From Pirellulales bacterium (GTDB lineage: Bacteria; Planctomycetota; Planctomycetia; Pirellulales; Lacipirellulaceae): a DNA stretch of 64,000 nucleotides. Below are positions 2 to 18,307 of this stretch, one piece after another (position 1 is the first letter of the stretch; every line of letters begins with the position of its first letter). The translations under genes and the position numbers were made by a program. The notes under the pieces are model-generated. The model was not told the origin of the DNA, ran no database searches, and saw nothing but the letters and a program-made list of their open reading frames with translations. The stretch lies in NCBI GenBank assembly GCA_020849945.1, contig JADZFK010000045.1, positions 295-64,294 of the forward strand, read 5' to 3'.

Positions 2-1672
2 CGCAATGCGTCGCGGGCACGCAAGATCCAACACGAGGCCTTGCTGCAGAAGATACGGCGGAACGCCGACAGCCAACTGGGGCGCGATTTCGGCTTCGCT
101 AGCATTCGCTCGGCGGCAGAGTTTCGAGCCCGCGTCCCCATCATGTCGTACGAGGACCATCGACCCTACATCAACCGGGTCTTGCATGGCGACGTAACCG
201 CCCTCTTCGCCCCTGGCACCAAAGTGCTGATGTTCGCCATGACCTCGGGCACGACGGGCGACCCCAAGCGGTTACCGATGACCGAGGAACTGTTCCGCGA
301 ATACCGCCGCGGGTGGCAACTGTGGGGAGGCGGCGTGTATGGCGATTACCCAAGGCTGCTCTACAAAAAAACCCTGCAGCTCACCAGCGATTGGCAACAA
401 CTCAAGGCGCCCTGCGGCATCCCGTGCGGCCAAATCAGCGGTCTGGCGGCGACCACCCGGCCCGCCATCGCCGACATCATGTTCCTTCCGCCATCGGCCA
501 CCATCCGCATTCACGACTCGGCCGCCAAACACTACGCCGCGCTGAGGTTCTCGCTCGCCTCGCGTAACATCGGCATGATCGTAACGGCCAACCCCAGTTC
601 GCTGGTCGAATTCGCACGACGGGCCGATTCCCAGCGGGAAGCACTCATCCGCGATATTTTCGATGGCACACTGAGCTGCGAAATCCCGGTCGACGTACGC
701 GCTACGCTCGCGCGGCGGATCGCCAAGCGTTCGCCCCGCCGTGCTCGCCAGTTGGAACGGCTCGTCGAAACACATGGCACCTTGCTGCCGAGGCACGTTT
801 GGCCAAAACTCTCGATGCTGGCCACCTGGACTGGCGGCTCCATCGGCATTTTCCTGCCCCGGCTCGCCGAACTCTATGGCCAAACGGCTGTTCGCGATCA
901 TGGCCTCTCCGCCAGCGAAGGACGCATGACCATCCCGCTGGCCGATGGCACCCCCGCCGGCATGCTCGATTATTGCCATCACTATTTCGAGTTCATCCCG
1001 GTTGAAGAGTACGGCAGCCACTCGCCGACCGTGCTGGAAGGGCACGAACTCGAATTGGGCCGCGATTACTTCATCCTCCTCACAACGTCGGGCGGCCTCT
1101 ATCGATACGATATCCACGATGCCGTCCGCTGCGTCGGATTCCAGGGGCAAGCACCCGTCCTCGAGTTCCTCAACAAAGGCAAGAACTTCTCGAACCTTAC
1201 AGGTGAGAAACTGAGCGAGAACCAGGTCATCCGAGCGGTCGAACGAAGCATTGCCGAACTCGGCCTGACGGTCGACTTCTTCACCCTTGCACCTGTGATG
1301 GAGGATCGGCCACGGTACGTGCTCCTTGTGGAGCGCAGCCTGCACCGTGGCCGTGCTGCTGAACTGGCGGCCTCCGTTCAAAAAAATCTGGTACAACTGA
1401 ACGAAGAGTACCAGGAGAAGTGTGCGAGTGGGCGTTTGCTTCCCGTGCAAGTTCGCGAAGTGTCGCCAGGCACCTGGGCGCGAATGCGGGCGGAAAAGAC
1501 AGATCAACGCGGCAACTTCGAAGAATACAAGCACATCTGCCTCGTGCAAGATTTGACCTTTGCCGCCCAATTGCACGCTACCCAGCCGACCGCCGAACCA
1601 GATCGTCCTTGCCTCGCCCCCCCGCTCAGTAACCACGCTTTCTTTCCCGGTCAGAATTTTCAAGCCCATTGA
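2..1672 (+). CDS. GH3-family acyl-acid amido synthetase-like adenylating enzyme (5' end cut by window edge)
   Basis: Frame is open from nt 2 (RNASRARKIQHEALLQKIRRNADSQ...), so the listed TTG at 41 is probably internal. It has the GH3-type nucleotide motif MTSGTTGDPKRLP and a typical ~550 aa size. Confidence 0.8.
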   Translation, partial: RNASRARKIQHEALLQKIRRNADSQLGRDFGFASIRSAAEFRARVPIMSYEDHRPYINRVLHGDVTALFAPGTKVLMFAMTSGTTGDPKRLPMTEELFREYRRGWQLWGGGVYGDYPRLLYKKTLQLTSDWQQLKAPCGIPCGQISGLAATTRPAIADIMFLPPSATIRIHDSAAKHYAALRFSLASRNIGMIVTANPSSLVEFARRADSQREALIRDIFDGTLSCEIPVDVRATLARRIAKRSPRRARQLERLVETHGTLLPRHVWPKLSMLATWTGGSIGIFLPRLAELYGQTAVRDHGLSASEGRMTIPLADGTPAGMLDYCHHYFEFIPVEEYGSHSPTVLEGHELELGRDYFILLTTSGGLYRYDIHDAVRCVGFQGQAPVLEFLNKGKNFSNLTGEKLSENQVIRAVERSIAELGLTVDFFTLAPVMEDRPRYVLLVERSLHRGRAAELAASVQKNLVQLNEEYQEKCASGRLLPVQVREVSPGTWARMRAEKTDQRGNFEEYKHICLVQDLTFAAQLHATQPTAEPDRPCLAPPLSNHAFFPGQNFQAH

Positions 1673-1720
1673 TTTTCTCGCTGCGGTGACCTCGCACACA
1701 GCTCGCATCGCTATCCACCC

Positions 1721-2749
1721 ATGTCGGCTCCCAACCTTCTCATCACCGGAGCTACGGGCCTCGTCGGCCGCAATTTGGCGCGCCGCGCGGCCGATGCGGG
1801 TTACCACGTTCTGGCAATGGTGCGAAAAGGCTCCGATCGCTCGGCCTTGGCGGATGCCGCGGTGAGTTACGTCGAGGCGGACCTTTCGGCCCCGGAAACA
1901 CTGCCGCACGCGGTGGCCGAGGCCGATTACGTTGTCCACGCCGCGGCCCACCTGGGTGATTGGGGCCCTCCGGAAAAGTACCGCGCCATCAATGTTGTCG
2001 CGCTCGAACACCTGCTCAACGCCGCGGTGCGCGCGGGCCGCCTCAAACGCTGGATTCACCTCAGCTCGCAAGGCGTTTACCCGGCCCGTCACCATTTCGG
2101 CACCGACGAAACCACTCCCCCAGAAACCAACAATATCGACGGCTACACCCAAACCAAAGCCGAGTCGGAACTCGTCGTCGAGCGGTTTGTGCGCGAGCAC
2201 GGCCTTTCCGCCGTCATTCTTCGCCCCGGCTTCACCTATGGGCCTGGCGAACGAAACGCTCTCAAGCGGGTTGTCGAAAAACTTCAGGCCGGTGAAATGA
2301 AAATCATCGGCCGTGGCGATCGGCTCCTTAACAACACCTCGGTTCACAACTTGTGCGACGCCATCCTGCTCGCACTCGAAAAGCCAGGCATCGACGGCGA
2401 AGTGTTCAACATCCGAGATGAGCGATTGGTGACCCGCGAAGAATTTGTCCACACGATCGCCGATTATTTGGGTGTGCCCCACCCTCGCCACGTGCCCGAG
2501 CGGCTCGTCAAAGCGGTTGTTGGGCCGGTCGAAGCGCTTGCGCGATTCCTCGGTCGCGAATCGGCCCCCATCATCACCCGCGGACAAATCAAGTTCCTTA
2601 CCCAGAACCTCGACTATTCCATCGAAAAGGCGAAACGTGTGCTGGGATATCGGCCCCGTGTCGATTTCCAGCAAGGCATTATCGAGGCACTCGATTCTCT
2701 CACCGGCAAGAACGTCGCCCCGCGTACACCGGCCCCGGCGGCCTCGTAA
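1721..2749 (+). CDS. NAD-dependent epimerase/dehydratase (extended SDR) family protein
   Basis: N-terminal Rossmann motif LITGATGLVGRNLARR, 342 aa, 48 nt downstream of the GH3 gene. Confidence 0.85.
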   Translation: MSAPNLLITGATGLVGRNLARRAADAGYHVLAMVRKGSDRSALADAAVSYVEADLSAPETLPHAVAEADYVVHAAAHLGDWGPPEKYRAINVVALEHLLNAAVRAGRLKRWIHLSSQGVYPARHHFGTDETTPPETNNIDGYTQTKAESELVVERFVREHGLSAVILRPGFTYGPGERNALKRVVEKLQAGEMKIIGRGDRLLNNTSVHNLCDAILLALEKPGIDGEVFNIRDERLVTREEFVHTIADYLGVPHPRHVPERLVKAVVGPVEALARFLGRESAPIITRGQIKFLTQNLDYSIEKAKRVLGYRPRVDFQQGIIEALDSLTGKNVAPRTPAPAAS

Positions 2750-2761
2750 CGAGGAATCGCC

Positions 2762-3946
2762 ATGCGTATCCGCCGACTCTCGGCTTTCGTGGCTCGGCTC
2801 CCGTTGAAGCGGCCCTTTCGCCACGCCTCGGCCACTCGCCTCGAAAGCGAAAACATCCTTATCAAGTGCGAGCTGGCCAGTGGCATCATCGGGTGGGGAG
2901 AAGGCGTGCCTCGCAGCTACGTGACCGGCGAAACACCTGCCGGATGCCTCGCCCAGTTGGCCGCCACCCCCGTCGCCGAGCAACTTACGGCCGATTGCTC
3001 TTCCTGGCCCGAGGTCATCGCATTGTGCGAACGGTTTCAGCCCATGCAAGACCGCGACGACCCCCGCGGCTGCTACGGCAACGCCCTGCGCTGCGCCGTC
3101 GAACTTAGCGTGTTGGATGCCTTCGGAAGACTCTTTGGCGAACCCGTTTCCGCCGTGTCGTCTCATGTACCCGAAGCCCAGCCGATTCTCGCTCACCCGC
3201 AACCTACCTTCGTGCGTTACGGAGTCGTGATCGACTCGGGCAACAGGCGGCTAAGGCTCAAGGCCCTCACGCGCAGGCTTTACGGCTTTCGCGATTGCAA
3301 AGTGAAAGTCGGCGCTGCTGAAGACGATGATCGGGCTCGCCTTCGCACGATCCGCCGATGGTTCGGCCCCGCCGTCGATCTGCGGATCGACGCGAACGAA
3401 GCCTGGCGGGCCGATCGGTTGCAGCAACATCTGAATCCGCTGCTCGCGCAGCGAATCAGTTGCGTGGAGCAACCGGTTCCCCATGCCGAAGTCGCTTGCC
3501 TTGCCGAGTTACGCCCGAAGCTGGGCGTACCCATCATGCTCGACGAATCGCTCACAAGCGAGACCGATGCCCGCGAGGCCATCGCCCACCGCACGTGTGA
3601 CCTGTTCAACCTTCGGCTTTCCAAGTGCGGCGGTTTTCTACGCTGCCTGCGACTTGCCGCCCTGGCCAACCATGCCAAACTGGGCTATCAACTTGGGTGC
3701 CATCCTGGTGAAAGCGGAATCCTCTCCGCCGCCGGCAGACACTGGGCCTGTTCCGTGGCCAACATTCGCTACCTCGAAGGTTCCTACGACCGGCACTTGT
3801 TCCGCAAGTTACTTACGAACGAAGACGCGACCTTCGGCTTCGGCGGCCGCGCCCCGAGCCTCCACCAACCCGGGTTGGGCGTGAGCATCAACTTGGCCAC
3901 CCTCGAACAAACGACGCAAGACCATCTGGTCTGCAAGGTGCTGTAA
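2762..3946 (+). CDS. Enolase-superfamily enzyme, MLE/racemase subgroup (dipeptide epimerase / N-acylamino-acid racemase-like)
   Basis: KxK motif (DCKVKVG), putative metal ligands in DLRIDANEAW, VEQPV and IMLDES, and a second catalytic Lys in LSKCGG. It lies 12 nt after the SDR gene. Confidence 0.8.
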   Translation: MRIRRLSAFVARLPLKRPFRHASATRLESENILIKCELASGIIGWGEGVPRSYVTGETPAGCLAQLAATPVAEQLTADCSSWPEVIALCERFQPMQDRDDPRGCYGNALRCAVELSVLDAFGRLFGEPVSAVSSHVPEAQPILAHPQPTFVRYGVVIDSGNRRLRLKALTRRLYGFRDCKVKVGAAEDDDRARLRTIRRWFGPAVDLRIDANEAWRADRLQQHLNPLLAQRISCVEQPVPHAEVACLAELRPKLGVPIMLDESLTSETDAREAIAHRTCDLFNLRLSKCGGFLRCLRLAALANHAKLGYQLGCHPGESGILSAAGRHWACSVANIRYLEGSYDRHLFRKLLTNEDATFGFGGRAPSLHQPGLGVSINLATLEQTTQDHLVCKVL

Positions 3947-3971
3947 GAACGCGTTTGGAAACTGCCTTCGA

Positions 3972-3992
3972 CCCTCTCTCACGGGGAGAGGG
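3972..3992 (+). terminator. GC-rich stem-loop 26 nt after the enolase-family stop
   Basis: CCCTCTC / GAGAGGG 7 bp stem with a 7 nt loop; no clear U-tract. Confidence 0.35.
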
Positions 3993-4002
3993 TGGATTTA
4001 AT

Positions 4003-4185
4003 CCGGATTTCTCACCACGGAGCACACAGAGGTCACGGAGGACAAGCCAAGAGATCGTTTGAAGCAAGGTCAAGCGCCCGTACCTACGAGACAGGGTGTT
4101 TCCGCCGTTCATTGGGGTAGGGGTACTTGCTACTGGTTTTCTCCGTGGCTCCGTGCCTCCGTGGTTTTGATTGTGAGAATTGGGG
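4003..4185 (+). repeat. ~183 bp MITE-like palindromic element, copy 1 (CACGGAG-type arms)
   Basis: Left end CCGGATTTCTCACCACGGAGCACACAGAGGTCACGG pairs with right end CCGTGGCTCCGTGCCTCCGTGG..TGTGAGAA. It is near-identical to 25704-25888. Confidence 0.85.
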
Positions 4186-5337
4186 ATTAATCCCTTTCGT
4201 GCCTTCGCTGGGGGGCCGTGTTCCGCTTCGCGTTGCGGCTAAACGGGTTTTTGCGCGTATTGCAACGGGTGCGGAAACGTGTTTTTGGATGCAATAATCG
4301 GCGCTATTTGCGACGGGTGCCGGCGTTTCCGCCGGAAAACGAAGCGTTTCCCGGGGAGGGGGTGTTGCAATAATCGTCGATTTTGCTCTTGTTCGCGCGA
4401 TTATTGTGCGAGGGGTGGGGAAAGCAAGAATCGGCGGCGGCATGGCGCGGAGCGGTGGCGGGGCCAACGCGAGGAATCAGGCGTGGGGTTGCCGTGCGAA
4501 ATGATCGAATTGTCAAAGAGCGGAGGGTCGCTGGTGAGACGTGGGGGGCATCTTAGCAGGATACGGAACAAGATTCCACTAGAATTATTGGCCACTTGGA
4601 GTTGTGAGTTGCGAGGGGTGAAGGGGTGAAGGGGGGCAGTGGGGCAGTGGGTAGAACTCGCTCCGGCGGGCCAAGTGGTTTGACAACTTTTATGGCTTGG
4701 GTTCAGCTCGACGCAACTCAATTGCTGCAAAGGGTTTGTGTCGAATTGAACCCAAGCAATGAGTGTGGACAAAGCACTCGTGTGCCCATTTAGGCCTCGA
4801 ACTGCTAGAGGCATCGCGTCACAATGGTGTCTCGATTTGCCCGATCATGGACAATGGCGCGGCGATGGTACCATCCTCGAGCGTTCGGCACCGTGACAAG
4901 GGCACAATATGGCTCGGCGCAGTGAGTAACGAATCCTTCCAACTACCTACAATACCAACCGCATATCGCTCCGTTTCAAGACGCCATCGAGGCAATCTGA
5001 GGCACCGCCCAGTTGACCGCGAGAAGCTTGGGCGGTGCTTCGCTCTGGCTTGGCCCCCCCGTTGATAGCCTTGTATCTAAAGGCACAGCACGAATATCCT
5101 GAGAACACATATGTGGAATCTGGATCGCACTCGTGCTAGCAAGAAGTGGGCAATTGCCGTCTGAGCGGCAAGGCTTAGGCGATCCTACGTTCGGCTTGCA
5201 GGCTTTGCGTATTCTTCGTAATTTTCCAGATGGATGTGGGTAGCTTTGTAGGCAGTTGGTTTTATTGCAGCATTCGAGGCGGAAAGTACTTTTCGTTGGC
5301 AAGGTTTCAAGAACTGAAGAATTAGGGAGCAAGACGC

Positions 5338-8300
5338 GTGGCGAATCGGGCGTTTATCACAGTAGACGGTAATGAAGCGGCGGCCTCGGTGGCCCATCTC
5401 ACCAATGAAGTGATCGCGATTTATCCGATCACGCCGGCCTCGAACATGGGCGAACTCGCCGACTATTGGACGAGTCGCGGTCAAACGAACATCTTCGGCA
5501 GCGTGCCGGAAGTGATCGAAATGCAGAGCGAAGCCGGCGCGGCGGCCAGCGCACACGGCGCCCTGCAAGCCGGTTCGTTGACGACGACCTTCACGGCTTC
5601 TCAGGGTTTGTTGTTGATGATCCCCGAGATGTTCAAGATTGCTGGCGAACTGACGCCGACGGTCTTTCACATAGCGGCCCGCGCGGTTGCCACGCACGCG
5701 CTTTCGATTTTTGGCGATCACAGCGACGTGATGGCTTGCCGCAGCACGGGTTGGGCCATGCTGGCGGCGAATAGTGTGGAAGAAGCCCAAGATATTGCCC
5801 TGATTGCGCAGGCCGCAACGCTGCGTGCCCGGGTTCCGTTCCTGCATTTCTTCGATGGCTTCCGCACGTCGCACGAAGTTAACAAGATCGAGCAGCTCAC
5901 GCACGACGACATCCGCTGGATGATCGACGAATCGCTTGTGCAGGAGCATCGCGAACGGGCCCTTTCGCCCGATAACCCCGTGCTGCGAGGCTCGGCGCAA
6001 AACCCCGACGTTTTCTTCCAGGCTCGCGAGGCATCGAACCCCTTCTATCTTGCCGTGCCTGGCATCGTCCAAGAAACGATGGACCGCTTTGCCGAACGCA
6101 TTGGGCGACAGTATCGCTTGTTCGAGTATTTCGGCTCGCCCAGCGCGCGGCGTGTATTGGTGATGATGGGTTCGGGCATCGGTGCGGCGGAAGAGGCGAT
6201 CGAACGGCTCATGGCCGAAGGCGAGGAAGTTGGCCTTTTGAAGGTGAGGCTTTATCGCCCCTTCGCTACCGAGGCGTTTTTGGCGGCGTTGCCCGCCACG
6301 GTCGAGCGCATGGCCGTGCTGGACCGCACGAAGGAACCCGGCGCCATTGGCGAGCCGCTTTACCTGGATGTGGTAACGGCCCTGGCCGAAGGGGACTTCG
6401 GGGGATCGGTTTCCGCGGAATCGCGTCCCGCTTGCAGGCCCGAGGTTTACGGTGGCCGCTACGGGTTGGCCTCCAAGGAGTTTACGCCGGCCATGGTGGC
6501 GGCCGTTTTCGATCATCTCAAAGAACCGCAACCCAAGCGCCATTTTACAGTTGGCATTTACGACGATGTCACCAACCTCAGCCTGAAGTGGGATCCCTCC
6601 TTCACCACCGAGCGCGGCGATGTTACCCGGGCCATCTTCTTCGGACTCGGCAGCGACGGCACGGTTGGCGCGAACAAGAACTCGGTCAAGATCATCGGCG
6701 AGAACACGCCGTTGTTTGCCCAGGGCTACTTCGTGTACGACTCGAAGAAGAGCGGGGCCGTTACCGTTTCGCACTTGCGATTTAGCCCGCGGCCGATTCG
6801 TTCGACATACCTTATCGAGGAGGCCAATTTCGTCGCTTGTCATCAATTCCACTTGATTGAAACGCTCGACGTACTGAAGGTGGCGGCCCGCGGCGGCACG
6901 TTCCTGCTCAACAGTCCGTACGCGGCCGACCAGGTGTGGCAACATCTGCCGAGCCAGGTGAAGCGGCAGATCGTTGAGAAGCAGTTGAAGTTCTATGTTG
7001 TCGATGGCCACGGCGTGGCCCGCGAAACGGGCATGGGCGGACGCATCAACACCGCCATGCAAGCCTGTTTCTTTGCCCTGGCGGGCATGCTTCCGCGCGA
7101 TGCGGCCATCGAAGAGATCAAGAATGCGATCCGGAAAACCTACGGCAAACGAGGCCAATCCATCCTCGATCAGAACTTTTCCGCCATCGATCTCGCGCTC
7201 GAACGGCTTCAGGAAGTGAACGTACCGGCCGGTGCCCATGCGATGGAGGAGGGAGGCACGAACGGTTTTGTTTCGTTCCAAACGAACGACGACTTCGTCC
7301 AGCGTGTCACGGCCGCCATTTTTGCTGGCCGCGGCGATCTCCTTCCCGTTAGTGCCATGAATGTCGATGGCACGTTCCCCACGGGTACCGCCAAGTACGA
7401 AAAGCGAAGTATTGCGAACGAGATTCCGATCTGGGACCCGTCCATCTGCATCGATTGCGGTTTGTGCGCGCTCGTGTGTCCGCACTCGGCCATCCGCATG
7501 AAGGCCTTCCCCGACTCGGCGTTGGCGGGCAAGCCGGGCGGATATCAATCGAAGACGTGGAAGGATAAGGATCACGCCGATTACCTGCTGACGATCCAGG
7601 TTGCCCCCGACGACTGCACGGGTTGCGGCGTGTGCGTGGACGTGTGCCCCGCCAAGAGCAAGGAAGCGGTCAAGCATAAGGCGATCAACATGGAGCCGAA
7701 GCTCGACCATTTGAACCGCGAGCGCGAAAACTTCGACTTCTTCCTCAAGATTCCCGAGTTCGATCGCACGCGGGCCAAGGTCGATGTTGTGAAGGGTTGC
7801 CAATTGCTCGAACCCCTGTTCGAGTTCAGTGGCGCCTGCTTGGGCTGCGGCGAAACGCCCTATCTCAAACTCATGAGCCAGTTGTTCGGCGACCGCGCGA
7901 TCGTGGCGAACGCCACCGGCTGCTCCTCCATTTATGGCGGCAACCTGCCCACGACTCCTTGGACGAAAGACAAGAACGGCCGCGGCCCCGCCTGGTGCAA
8001 TTCGCTTTTCGAGGATAATGCGGAGTTCGGCCTTGGCATTCGCCTTGCGGCCGATCAACAGCGCGATTACGCCACCGTGCTGCTAAAGCAATTCGCCGAT
8101 CGATTGGGTGAAATCTTCGTTAGCGAACTGATCGAGTCGAACGAAACAGACGAGGTTTCGATCGCCGCGCAGCGTGATCGGGTAGCCCGGCTGAAGCGAA
8201 AGCTTGCCGAGTTCAACGAGCCGAAGGCCCGCGAACTGGCCAGCGTGGCCGATGCGCTGGTTCGACGGAGTGTTTGGATTGTTGGTGGTGATGGTTGGGC

Positions 8301-16786: not shown

Positions 16787-18307
16787 ATGCGTAACACCCG
16801 CGATACCAAACTGCTGTTTGAACTTTCCGAAGCCGGTCGCCGCGCGCACCGGCTGCCGGCTTGCGATGTGCCTGAGCGTACGGCCAAGGAATTGTTGCCG
16901 GCCAGCTCGCTGGCCGCCGCTCCGCCAGCGTTGCCCGAATTGAGCGAGCCGCAGGTTGTGCGGCATTTTGCGAATCTTTCGCAGCTCAACATGAGCGTCG
17001 ACACGCACTTCTACCCGCTCGGCTCGTGTACGATGAAGTACAACCCGAAGCGGAACGAGCGCGCGGCCCGGATGCCCGGCATCGCCGACGTACACCCGTA
17101 CCAGCCGGAAAGCACGTTGCAAGGCATGTTGCAACTTCTTTACGAGATGCAGGAGTACCTGCAGGAGATTTCGGGGCTACCGGCCTGCTCACTGCAACCG
17201 GCTGCGGGGGCCCACGGCGAGCTTACGGCCCTGTGGGTCGCGGCGGCCTACTTCCGCGATCGTAGCGAAAAGCGCACCAAGGTGCTTGTTCCCGATAGTG
17301 CCCACGGCACGAACCCGGCCAGCGCTTCGATGGCCGGTTTCCAAACGGTCACGGTGAAGACGCTCGCCTCCGGCGCGGTCGACATGGACGACTTCCGCCG
17401 GTTACTGGACGATGAAATAGCCGTGTTCATGATCACCAACCCAAACACGGTGGGCGTGTTCGAGCCGAACATGAAAGCCATTGCCGACGCCGTTCATGCT
17501 CGCGGCGGGCTGGTGTATTTGGATGGCGCGAACATGAACGCGATTCTTGGCATCGCCCGGCCGGGCGATTTCGGCGCCGATATGCAGCACTACAACCCCC
17601 ACAAGACTTTTAGCGGCCCGCACGGCGGCGGCGGCCCCGGAGCCGGCCCGATTTGTGTGGCGGAGAAGCTCGCGCCGTACTTGCCCACGCCGGTGGTAGT
17701 GAAAGTCAAGAGTCTTGAGCCAAGAGTCAAGAGCCAGAAGGATGGCTCCACCGCCTCTCCGGCTCTTGACTCTCCGCTCTTGACTCTTGACTATGATCGC
17801 CCCAAATCCATCGGCCGTGTCCGCGCGTTCTTCGGCAACGTGGGCGTGCTTGTGCGGGCTTACTGTTACATCCGCACACATGGGCCTGATGGGCTGAAGC
17901 GAGTCAGCGAGAATGCGGTGCTCAACGCCAATTATTTGCTCAGCAAGGTGAAGCACTTTCTGCCCGTGCCGCAAGGCGACCGCTGCATGCACGAGTTCGT
18001 CGCCACGGCGGGCAAACTCAAGAGCGAAAAAGGCGTCTCCGCAATGGACATCGCCAAACGCTTGTTGGACTACGGCTTTCATGCCCCGACAGTGTACTTC
18101 CCGCTCTCGGTGAAGGAATCGATCATGATCGAACCGACGGAAACCGAGAGCAAGGAAATGCTCGATGCATTTGCGGAGACGCTCTTCCGCGTGATCGGCG
18201 AGGATGCCGAATTGCTCCACGAAGCCCCTCACAGCACGGCCATCAGCCGACCGGACGACGTCCGCGCCGCCCGGCAACCGATGCTTACTTACTCGTCGAA
18301 AGAATAA
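16787..18307 (+). CDS. gcvPB: Glycine dehydrogenase (decarboxylating) subunit 2, carrying an in-frame palindromic-element insertion
   Basis: LFELSEAGRRAHRLP, NPHKTFSGPHGGGGPGAGP, YDRPKSIGRVRAFFGN. The loop between LPTP and YDRP is unusually long. Confidence 0.93.
   Translation: MRNTRDTKLLFELSEAGRRAHRLPACDVPERTAKELLPASSLAAAPPALPELSEPQVVRHFANLSQLNMSVDTHFYPLGSCTMKYNPKRNERAARMPGIADVHPYQPESTLQGMLQLLYEMQEYLQEISGLPACSLQPAAGAHGELTALWVAAAYFRDRSEKRTKVLVPDSAHGTNPASASMAGFQTVTVKTLASGAVDMDDFRRLLDDEIAVFMITNPNTVGVFEPNMKAIADAVHARGGLVYLDGANMNAILGIARPGDFGADMQHYNPHKTFSGPHGGGGPGAGPICVAEKLAPYLPTPVVVKVKSLEPRVKSQKDGSTASPALDSPLLTLDYDRPKSIGRVRAFFGNVGVLVRAYCYIRTHGPDGLKRVSENAVLNANYLLSKVKHFLPVPQGDRCMHEFVATAGKLKSEKGVSAMDIAKRLLDYGFHAPTVYFPLSVKESIMIEPTETESKEMLDAFAETLFRVIGEDAELLHEAPHSTAISRPDDVRAARQPMLTYSSKE
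17704..17792. repeat. Palindromic AGTCAAGAG-type element inside the gcvPB reading frame
   Basis: AGTCAAGAGTCTTGAGCCAAGAGTCAAGAGCCAGAA ... CCGGCTCTTGACTCTCCGCTCTTGACTCTTGACT. It uses the same units and the same GAGCCAGA inner boundary as the intergenic element at 51988-52113. Confidence 0.85.

Follow-up and report, generated by a model that had tools for sequence, protein, structure and literature searches.

The DNA analyzed here, referred to as the window, is a 64,000-nucleotide stretch from the genome of a planctomycete of the family Lacipirellulaceae (order Pirellulales). It corresponds to positions 295–64294 of contig C45. At its left end lie three co-directional genes, which encode a GH3-family enzyme, an extended short-chain dehydrogenase/reductase (SDR), and an enolase-superfamily enzyme, here called ENO, that resembles the muconate-lactonizing enzymes (MLEs). 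The spacers are 48 nt between GH3 and SDR and 12 nt between SDR and ENO. The features are collected in Table 1. Of interest are the kind of product that this gene set makes and the kind of chemistry that ENO contributes to it.

Table 1. Features at the left end of the window, in window coordinates.
Feature	Position	Strand	Remarks and basis
GH3-family acyl-acid amido synthetase	2–1672	+	Last 556 codons within the window, 5′ end open there; Pfam and motifs
Extended SDR, NAD(P)-dependent, OleD/HpnA/3β-HSD-like	1721–2749	+	Pfam Epimerase; GATGLVG and YxxxK
ENO, MLE-like enolase-superfamily enzyme of the uncharacterized "R-type" family	2762–3946	+	K180-x-K182; D210/E236/D261; R285 replacing the sixth-strand Lys; K288
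Hairpin	3968–3996	+	Begins 22 nt past the ENO stop; sequence and fold

The three genes and the GH3 subfamily

The open reading frames (ORFs) and their spacers are exactly where a first-pass annotation of the window had placed them, and all three proteins appear intact by a motif check. The same annotation took the upstream context to be cut off, and indeed C45 itself ends just 294 nt 5′ of the window. Even so, C45 contains the whole GH3 gene. It extends from an ATG at contig position 143 to position 1966, with an alternative GTG start at 239; these starts lie 152 and 56 nt upstream of window base 1, respectively. The ortholog alignment favors a start near the GTG.

The genes had been read as an operon ending in a hairpin. 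The hairpin does follow ENO, and it consists of a 10-bp stem (3971–3980 paired with 3984–3993; nine Watson–Crick pairs and one G·U), a 3-nt loop, and two outer pairs. Its sequence is present in one exact copy in the genome. A role as a canonical intrinsic terminator is not supported, as it has no U-tract and a consensus terminator scan does not call it.

The assignments to the GH3, SDR, and enolase families are all supported by Pfam. For the GH3 protein, the N, M, and C domain models (PF03321, PF23571, and PF23572) score 216.5, 77.2, and 57 bits, against a cut-off of 23.6. Its nucleotide-binding motifs, i.e., TSGTTG (132), GLSASEG, and YRYDIHD (418), are invariant or nearly so in six orthologs, one of which is only 28% identical. 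The best matches in the Protein Data Bank are plant GH3 structures (7dk8, 1e-31).

The function of bacterial GH3 enzymes was opaque until OlsH was described in 2025. OlsH, the GH3 enzyme of Singulisphaera acidiphila, couples ornithine to a free fatty acid at the expense of ATP, and its product is then O-acylated by the α/β-hydrolase OlsI (PMC12493201). All characterized GH3 enzymes, bacterial OlsH included, form amides with amino acids (PMC12493201). By analogy, the window GH3 probably adenylates a carboxylic acid and joins it in amide linkage to an amino acid. It is not an OlsH ortholog, as both model score and tree position attest. On the OlsH equivalog model NF052613 it reaches 100.9 bits of the required 620. 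In a FastTree tree of 94 GH3 proteins, the OlsH-like planctomycete proteins stand apart, at 26–27% identity to the window GH3.

The remaining GH3 proteins in the tree form one large family of three clades, which are arranged roughly by order. The Pirellulales clade, to which the window GH3 belongs, is found in the company of a type I polyketide synthase (PKS), ENO, an α/β-hydrolase of the Hydrolase_4 family (here HYD), and SDR. In the clade of the Gemmataceae and their allies, GH3 is the last gene of a type II set with the order FabA-like dehydratase–ketosynthase (KS)–KS–α/β-hydrolase–GH3. The third clade is that of the Planctomycetaceae. A scan for GH3 loci with one genome per species returned 80 loci, all from Planctomycetota, at 43–77% identity. 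The locus defines a second bacterial GH3 subfamily, far more widespread than the first and equipped with reproducible partner enzymes.

ENO and the R-type family

ENO has the capping domain and TIM barrel of its superfamily. These are seen with Pfam (MR_MLE_C, 152 bits), in an AlphaFold model (79 family sequences; pLDDT 96.7), and in Foldseek comparisons. By sequence, the nearest solved structures are an N-succinyl-Arg/Lys racemase (2p88, 1e-32), dipeptide epimerases, and N-acylamino-acid racemases, followed by MLEs. Foldseek with the ENO model gives the same ranking, with TM-scores of 0.8–0.85 to MLE-subgroup structures (0.85 for 2p88) at 21–26% identity.

None of the functional models claims the protein. 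ENO scores 115.1 bits on the muconate cycloisomerase subfamily model TIGR02534 (cut-off 334.95), 91.2 bits on the DgcA model (cut-off 400), and 76.5 and 57.4 bits on the L-Ala-D/L-Glu epimerase models NF041118 and NF011708 (cut-offs 500 and 343, respectively). Designation as a dipeptide epimerase, NSAR/DgcA, OSBS, or muconate cycloisomerase was rejected, all of the models being far below cut-off. No catechol-pathway genes are present near ENO. With no family model above its cut-off, ENO does not cluster with a characterized enzyme of unrelated function.

The first-pass annotation credited ENO with the full MLE-subgroup catalytic set, including a second lysine. The KxK motif and the three metal ligands are indeed present and invariant. 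D210, E236, and D261 align with D191, E219, and D244 of YkfB from B. subtilis (1jpm), and K180-V-K182 lies on strand E178–182 of the AlphaFold model. The second lysine is where that description fails. The catalytic K268 of YkfB aligns with R285 of ENO, and the second-shell K271 of YkfB aligns with K288. The alignment is ungapped from YkfB D244 to K268, i.e., from ENO D261 to R285, and R285 directly follows barrel strand 6 (E281–284) in the model. That is, K288 holds the second-shell position, and the catalytic position at the sixth strand is held by an invariant arginine. According to a preprint on this position, K268 is the acid/base, and the Arg or Lys three residues on is a second-shell residue required by two-base racemases (bioRxiv 10.1101/2022.03.03.481873). 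ENO has R285-x-x-K288 in place of the K-x-x-R/K of NSAR, and the two-base pair of a strand-2 and a strand-6 Lys is absent.

The arginine is a family trait. It is found in 25 of 25 ENO orthologs, which range from 45 to 100% identity. An exhaustive search of 1.84 billion representatives returned 505 clusters (E ≤ 1e-30). The motif N-[ILV]-R-[LIV]-[SA]-K-x-G-G is shared by at least 130 of the best 150 representatives of this R-type family, and one has Lys. Nor is the arginine the result of lineage-wide drift, because the same genome encodes a canonical MLE-subgroup paralog (C194, about 17262–18113, minus strand) with the sequence N-I-K-L-M-K-C-G-G typical of dipeptide epimerases. A literature search turned up no account of a sixth-strand Arg in the MLE subgroup.

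Additional invariants of the ENO family are R51 and Y53 (in P-R-x-Y-V-T-G-E-T), H21, E317, and E339-G-S-Y-D. In dipeptide epimerases an Asp-x-Asp after strand 8 binds the ammonium group of the substrate. The corresponding D321-x-D323 of YkfB (D-F-D) aligns with S341-Y-D343, so that the first Asp is Ser341 in ENO and the dipeptide-epimerase motif is missing.

Could ENO still be a genuine two-base N-acyl-amino-acid racemase or epimerase, giving the D-form of the GH3 product? Its nearest structures by sequence and fold are enzymes of this kind, its KxK and metal ligands are intact, and GH3 would supply just such substrates. In addition, arginine can be a Brønsted base near metal-bound carboxylates, as in pectate lyases. 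These points are opposed by the constancy of the arginine at the K268 position, by racemase and epimerase models that all fall far short, and by the swap of the base Lys and the +3 second-shell residue relative to NSAR and dipeptide epimerases (bioRxiv 10.1101/2022.03.03.481873). Because the sixth-strand Lys is replaced by an invariant Arg, the alignments make classical two-base racemization or epimerization doubtful, and we consider this explanation unlikely.

R-type enzymes are routinely given automatic names such as "dipeptide epimerase" or "muconate cycloisomerase", though they are without the defining catalytic Lys. Should the product of the locus prove not to be an envelope lipid, the locus would still correct this systematic misannotation.

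Conservation and genomic partners

Nine loci with close GH3 orthologs were compared, eight from genomes of the same genus and one (G039) from another family of the same order; ORFs of the fetched loci were called by a simple longest-ORF rule, and taxon labels follow record titles and source names. ENO directly follows GH3, with or without an intervening SDR gene, in all nine. In a broader set of 16 Pirellulales loci, defined by a GH3 of at least 53% identity and at least 3 kb of downstream flank, ENO lies downstream on the same strand in 14. The usual order is PKS-GH3-SDR-ENO-HYD. GH3 and the enolase-superfamily gene are conserved together, so that the lack of co-occurrence that would have told against the first-pass annotation is not seen.

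Of the 201 Planctomycetia genomes in the one-per-species sample, 146 have GH3 and 139 have ENO (E ≤ 1e-60). The two genes co-occur in 138 genomes and are both absent from 54; eight genomes have GH3 alone, and one has ENO alone. These figures are given as counts, with no P-value, as related genomes are not independent samples. The informative part of the profile is the order of the window genome, because the pair is rare there: both genes are present in five genomes and absent from 43, with no discordant case. Among the eight GH3-only genomes, six (five in genus g26, plus G462) have weaker GH3 matches (E about 1e-103 to 1e-109), which probably represent another GH3 subclade. Completeness is 80% and 89% for the other two and 92% for the ENO-only genome, which is in 670 contigs.

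Physical linkage varies. GH3 and ENO are adjacent in the Pirellulales families, 2–6 kb or about 25 kb apart in many genomes of f119, and unlinked in f120, f124, and most of f19. HYD orthologs were detected in 6 of 61 genomes of the order by tblastn, which underestimates diverged copies; all six also have GH3 and ENO. In one genome found through HYD alone (G477), ENO adjoins HYD and GH3 is 550 kb away. That is, ENO-HYD adjacency persists where ENO is unlinked from GH3.

The partners that tell most about the locus, namely the upstream type I PKS with its thioesterase and HYD, were out of sight of the first-pass annotation. The type I PKS is a protein of about 2,550 residues with the domain order KS-AT-DH-ER-KR-ACP-TE, and its gene is directly upstream of GH3 in all same-genus loci. 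The window genome has a PKS that is 71% identical. It is alone on, and fills, contig C195, and its stop codon is formed by the last 3 nt of the contig. From synteny with the relatives, C195 likely adjoins C45. The active-site motifs of KS, DH, and TE are present, that of TE being GWSTG, and no methyltransferase domain is found in the PKS. The AT has GHSVG and HAFH, the established malonyl-CoA signature. In the literature, monomodular PKSs of planctomycetes are known only as orphans; with the locus, such an orphan gains a testable role.

HYD, a protein of 280–310 residues, is encoded downstream of ENO in relatives and has its best matches to lysophospholipase L2 and Hydrolase_4. In the window genome HYD has been relocated to contig C126 (L127:8321–9223, minus strand), where it sits beside an MsrB-like gene (7515–8273) that also follows HYD in relatives. 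Because these two genes, 3′ of ENO elsewhere, are on C126 here, the gene-free stretch of about 1.4 kb that follows ENO (window 3947–5337) is a synteny breakpoint.

Other contexts are richer or differently supplied. Rhodopirellula loci have PKS, ENO-HYD, an ApbA-like reductase, an MMPL transporter, and two GH3 paralogs within 10 kb. In three Rhodopirellula/Pirellulaceae loci (L056, L058, and L059), the two GH3 paralogs are of the same clade and flank the PKS/ENO-HYD/ApbA/MMPL block, an arrangement which suggests that a single cluster conjugates two different acids or amino acids. Loci of the Aeoliella type are without PKS and have a membrane FA_desaturase and an ApbA-like reductase instead. Additional GH3 contexts include a FAAL-ACP loader with a type II thioesterase, and an MMPL transporter. 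These variants are in keeping with a lipid product. A Planctomycetales metagenome-assembled genome (MAG) has ten co-directional genes (L103:5238–17221) in the order FabA-like, KS, KS, α/β-hydrolase, GH3, DUF1571, response regulator, DsbD_2/NicO-like membrane protein, ENO, and HYD. The DsbD_2/NicO-like gene is also directly 5′ of ENO in several metagenome loci.

To summarize the supply side, orthologous GH3 genes are directly preceded by one of two unrelated chain-building systems, the type I PKS or the type II KS set, and both systems end in a release enzyme (a thioesterase or a hydrolase). No other observation argues as strongly that GH3 acts on a dedicated fatty or polyketide acid in its free form.

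The SDR is a less constant partner. It matches Pfam Epimerase (PF01370, 127.4 bits) and has GATGLVG at residue 10 and Y142-T-Q-T-K146. Its best NCBIfam models are OleD (143.5 bits, cut-off 580) and HpnA (129.2 bits, cut-off 367.65), neither of which is reached. In sequence it resembles lipid reductases (OleD, HpnA, 3β-HSD) and not sugar enzymes. The SDR gene lies between GH3 and ENO in six of the nine close-ortholog loci, and by protein clustering it is present in 14 of 21 type-A and Rhodopirellula loci. It is an optional member of the cluster. The earlier proposal that the SDR modifies an acyl or a sugar moiety therefore needs narrowing: the likeness is to lipid reductases, and a third of the loci do without the enzyme. 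A related extended SDR, 29–31% identical to that of the window, adjoins the OlsH-like GH3 in three loci of other Planctomycetota (L208, L209, and L211); because of this, the GH3-SDR pairing may be older than the association with ENO.

The OleD likeness raises the question of an ester or lactone product. PKS and SDR would make a β-hydroxy acid, and the adenylating enzyme would activate it for attack by an alcohol or from within the molecule, not by an amine. ENO, as an MLE-type lactonizing enzyme, and HYD would then handle the resulting lactone or ester. The condensing enzyme, adenylating enzyme, α/β-hydrolase, and SDR of the extended locus mirror OleA, OleC, OleB, and OleD. The best SDR model, OleD, is a 2-alkyl-3-oxoalkanoate reductase, and the 115 bits of ENO on the muconate cycloisomerase model, together with one-base chemistry, would fit a cycloisomerase. 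These same OleD and MLE scores are far too low when set against their cut-offs, the SDR is dispensable in one third of loci, and characterized GH3 enzymes all form amino-acid amides (PMC12493201; PDB entries). An Ole-like route is accordingly improbable.

R-type ENOs are not confined to planctomycetes. A metagenome scan with the ENO family alignment yielded 80 loci, of which 21 have GH3 within 5 kb of ENO. In about 18 loci GH3 is directly downstream, often as HYD-ENO-GH3 or HYD::ENO-GH3. These GH3s are 33–39% identical to the window GH3 and 22–29% identical to OlsH-like proteins. The closest named relatives of one GH3-linked ENO are from Thermodesulfovibrionales and Syntrophorhabdus MAGs (Nitrospirota and Desulfobacterota), and another R-type ENO is from Margulisbacteria. 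The richest version of the module that was seen (L203:6094–17132) has, in one direction, GH3, a small ORF, SDR, HYD, ENO, a second GH3, MFS, radical SAM, and MFS genes, with two more α/β-hydrolases upstream.

Gene fusions among the R-type representatives comprise three Hydrolase_4::ENO and two Haem_oxygenas_2::ENO proteins. The latter (P0058 and P0060; 619–624 residues) join an HDO-type di-iron oxidase domain to ENO. Some members of the HDO family are oxidases that modify fatty acids, and these fusions hint that oxidative tailoring is coupled to the ENO step.

Where no GH3 is nearby, the neighbors of R-type ENOs include a FadL/TodX outer-membrane channel in 15 loci and an LpxL-like acyltransferase in 5, as well as an Aas-like acyltransferase::AMP-ligase. 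One subgroup, in metagenome loci L128–L155, has neither GH3 nor HYD nearby; its ENO genes are flanked by those for the FadL/TodX channel and for a PAS/GAF histidine kinase, joined in five loci by the gene for the LpxL-like lipid A acyltransferase. Lipids are a recurrent theme of R-type ENO neighborhoods.

Two explanations can be weighed against this record. The first is that the adjacency has no functional meaning, the genes belonging to unrelated pathways. The lack of GH3-ENO linkage in most Planctomycetaceae and in f120 and f124 is what such an explanation would expect. The concordant distribution in the window genome's own order, the re-creation of GH3-ENO adjacency in another gene order in other phyla, and the HYD::ENO fusions speak to the contrary. 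The explanation is largely refuted already, and we give it next to no weight. The three genes had been annotated as an apparent operon; that they form a conserved unit is borne out by the arrangement in the 9 and 14 loci noted above, the shared patchy profile, and the recurrence in other phyla.

The second explanation is lipid remodeling or salvage, in which HYD would free a fatty acid or deacylate an amino- or lysolipid, GH3 would re-ligate the acid, and ENO would process the head group. It draws on the likeness of HYD to lysophospholipase L2, on the FadL/TodX uptake channels, Aas-like acyltransferase::acyl-AMP ligases, and MFS transporters beside R-type ENOs elsewhere, and on the many planctomycetes in which GH3 occurs alone, with no chain-building genes. 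In Pirellulales and Gemmataceae, by contrast, GH3 is directly coupled to dedicated chain builders and a releasing thioesterase or hydrolase. The transporters nearby are MMPL and MFS exporters, not catabolic genes, and no β-oxidation genes are seen in the loci. Salvage is therefore a distinctly minor candidate.

A proposed acyl-amino-acid pathway and its known relatives

We propose that the operon core builds and processes a lipid-like conjugate of an acyl chain with an amino acid, in an aminolipid pathway like, and distinct from, that of OlsH/OlsI. We put the probability of this reading at roughly 0.55. The substrates, the order of the steps, and the product are inferred from the gene content, conservation, co-occurrence, fusions, and active-site residues described above. 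The proposed steps are as follows. A FAS-like type I PKS with a malonyl-specific AT would make a saturated acyl chain, and its TE would free the acid. GH3 would adenylate the free carboxylate (ATP/Mg) and join the acid to the amino group of an amino acid. Where present, the SDR would reduce or oxidize a keto or hydroxy group of the lipid; some relatives would have an ApbA-like reductase or a membrane desaturase acting additionally at this stage.

ENO is proposed to act next. Enzymes of the enolase superfamily abstract the proton α to a metal-bound carboxylate. Because the amino acid contributes the only free carboxylate of the conjugate, ENO would act at the amino-acid α-carbon. It would hold this carboxylate through Mg2+ bound by D210, E236, and D261, and K182 would take the α-proton to give an enolate. 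The enolate could be resolved by one-base chemistry, i.e., β-elimination or reprotonation on the same face, or, alternatively, by epimerization with Arg285 or another residue as second base. A one-base outcome seems somewhat more likely, because the residue at the opposite face is Arg285 and not Lys. Lastly, HYD, the constant partner of ENO, may contribute ester or acyl-transfer chemistry, a role modeled on OlsI. The product would most likely be an envelope or exported lipid. A stieleriacine-type N-acyl dehydrotyrosine, as made by Pirellulaceae, was rejected as the product: stieleriacines are made with NasY, an adenylyltransferase/cyclase, and a nitroreductase, and the paper on them mentions no GH3, enolase, PKS, or hydrolase.

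The first-pass annotation envisaged a small pathway that builds and then epimerizes an acyl-amino-acid. Its first half is upheld by the conserved unit and by the precedent of OlsH, a GH3 enzyme that makes an N-acyl amino acid (PMC12493201). Its second half is not, two-base epimerization being doubtful and the SDR optional.

Several observations weigh against the proposed pathway. The ENO step is the weakest link, as an Arg at the sixth strand matches no characterized MLE-subgroup mechanism. In the window genome, HYD is not beside ENO, and the ends of C195 and C45 do not overlap, so that the PKS-GH3 adjacency is drawn from synteny alone. In families where both genes are near-universal, the co-occurrence of GH3 and ENO is little informative, and related genomes are non-independent. 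In the Planctomycetaceae both genes are present yet unlinked, and a conserved neighbor of the Planctomycetaceae GH3 clade was sought and none was found. Finally, the GH3 gene of a Legionella PKS cluster was inactivated with no change in the cluster product (PMC5640695).

A wider proposal can be put forward tentatively, as a possibility that we hold to be well short of even odds. With the R-type enzymes, the enolase superfamily would gain a new class of reaction. These enzymes, a GH3 subfamily dedicated to the purpose, and a Hydrolase_4 enzyme would make unrecognized lipoamino acids with a modified head group, e.g., a dehydro or inverted amino acid. Most Planctomycetia, and members of several other phyla, would have such lipids as a standard part of the envelope, and the Pirellulales chain would come from the orphan monomodular type I PKS. 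If the product is an envelope lipid, it would be a new lipid class for a phylum with a still-debated cell envelope. A literature search turned up no publication that connects GH3 to the enolase superfamily or that describes the pathway. The planctomycete form of the association, with its type I PKS or type II KS supply, SDR, and Hydrolase_4 partner and fusions, is new here, as are the phyletic profile and the figure for how large the R-type family is.

How does the locus compare with known systems? The plant GH3 enzymes (OsGH3.8, 7dk8; JAR1, 5ech; AtGH3.5, 3.6, 3.12, and 3.15) share the three-domain architecture and the nucleotide-binding motifs. They are distant in sequence (E 1e-31 to 1e-19); the context here is bacterial, and the likely acid is a PKS or fatty acid synthase product, not a hormone. 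With the MLE-subgroup enzymes BC0371 (2p88), YkfB (1jpm/1tkk), 3jva, 3q45, and NSAR/OSBS, ENO shares the fold, the KxK on strand 2, the D/E/D ligands, and the motif N-x-[K/R]-L-x-K-x-G-G. It departs from them in its low identity, in the Arg for the sixth-strand Lys, in its own invariants (R51, Y53, H21, and E339-G-S-Y-D), and in Ser341 for the first Asp of D321-x-D323.

The OleABCD olefin/β-lactone pathway likewise combines a condensing enzyme, an adenylating enzyme, an α/β-hydrolase, and an OleD-like SDR. Its models are far below cut-off here, the adenylating enzyme is a GH3 and not OleC, and the enolase-superfamily member has no counterpart in Ole. The legionellol cluster of Legionella pneumophila also places a bacterial GH3 (lol1) inside a cluster of polyketide or fatty-acid type, with a product that contains a modified amino acid (PMC5640695). 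Its differences are KSIII-type enzymes, the absence of an enolase-superfamily gene, and a product that was left unchanged by GH3 inactivation, as noted above.

The closest parallel is the OlsH-OlsG-OlsI ornithine-lipid pathway (PMC12493201; review PMC12971839). It belongs to the same phylum, and in it, too, an amino acid is N-acylated by a GH3 enzyme from a free fatty acid and ATP. The partner for the second acyl step is an α/β-hydrolase (to which HYD is likened by analogy), and the product is a membrane aminolipid. In contrast, the window GH3 belongs to a different clade, at about 26% identity to the OlsH-like planctomycete GH3s. No locus here has a methyltransferase, OlsG or other, and there are an extra type I PKS, R-type ENO, and SDR. 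The OlsH-like GH3 loci that were fetched have an extended SDR neighbor and no Hydrolase_4 neighbor. The locus is an analog of OlsH/OlsG/OlsI in its first step and not a member of that pathway.

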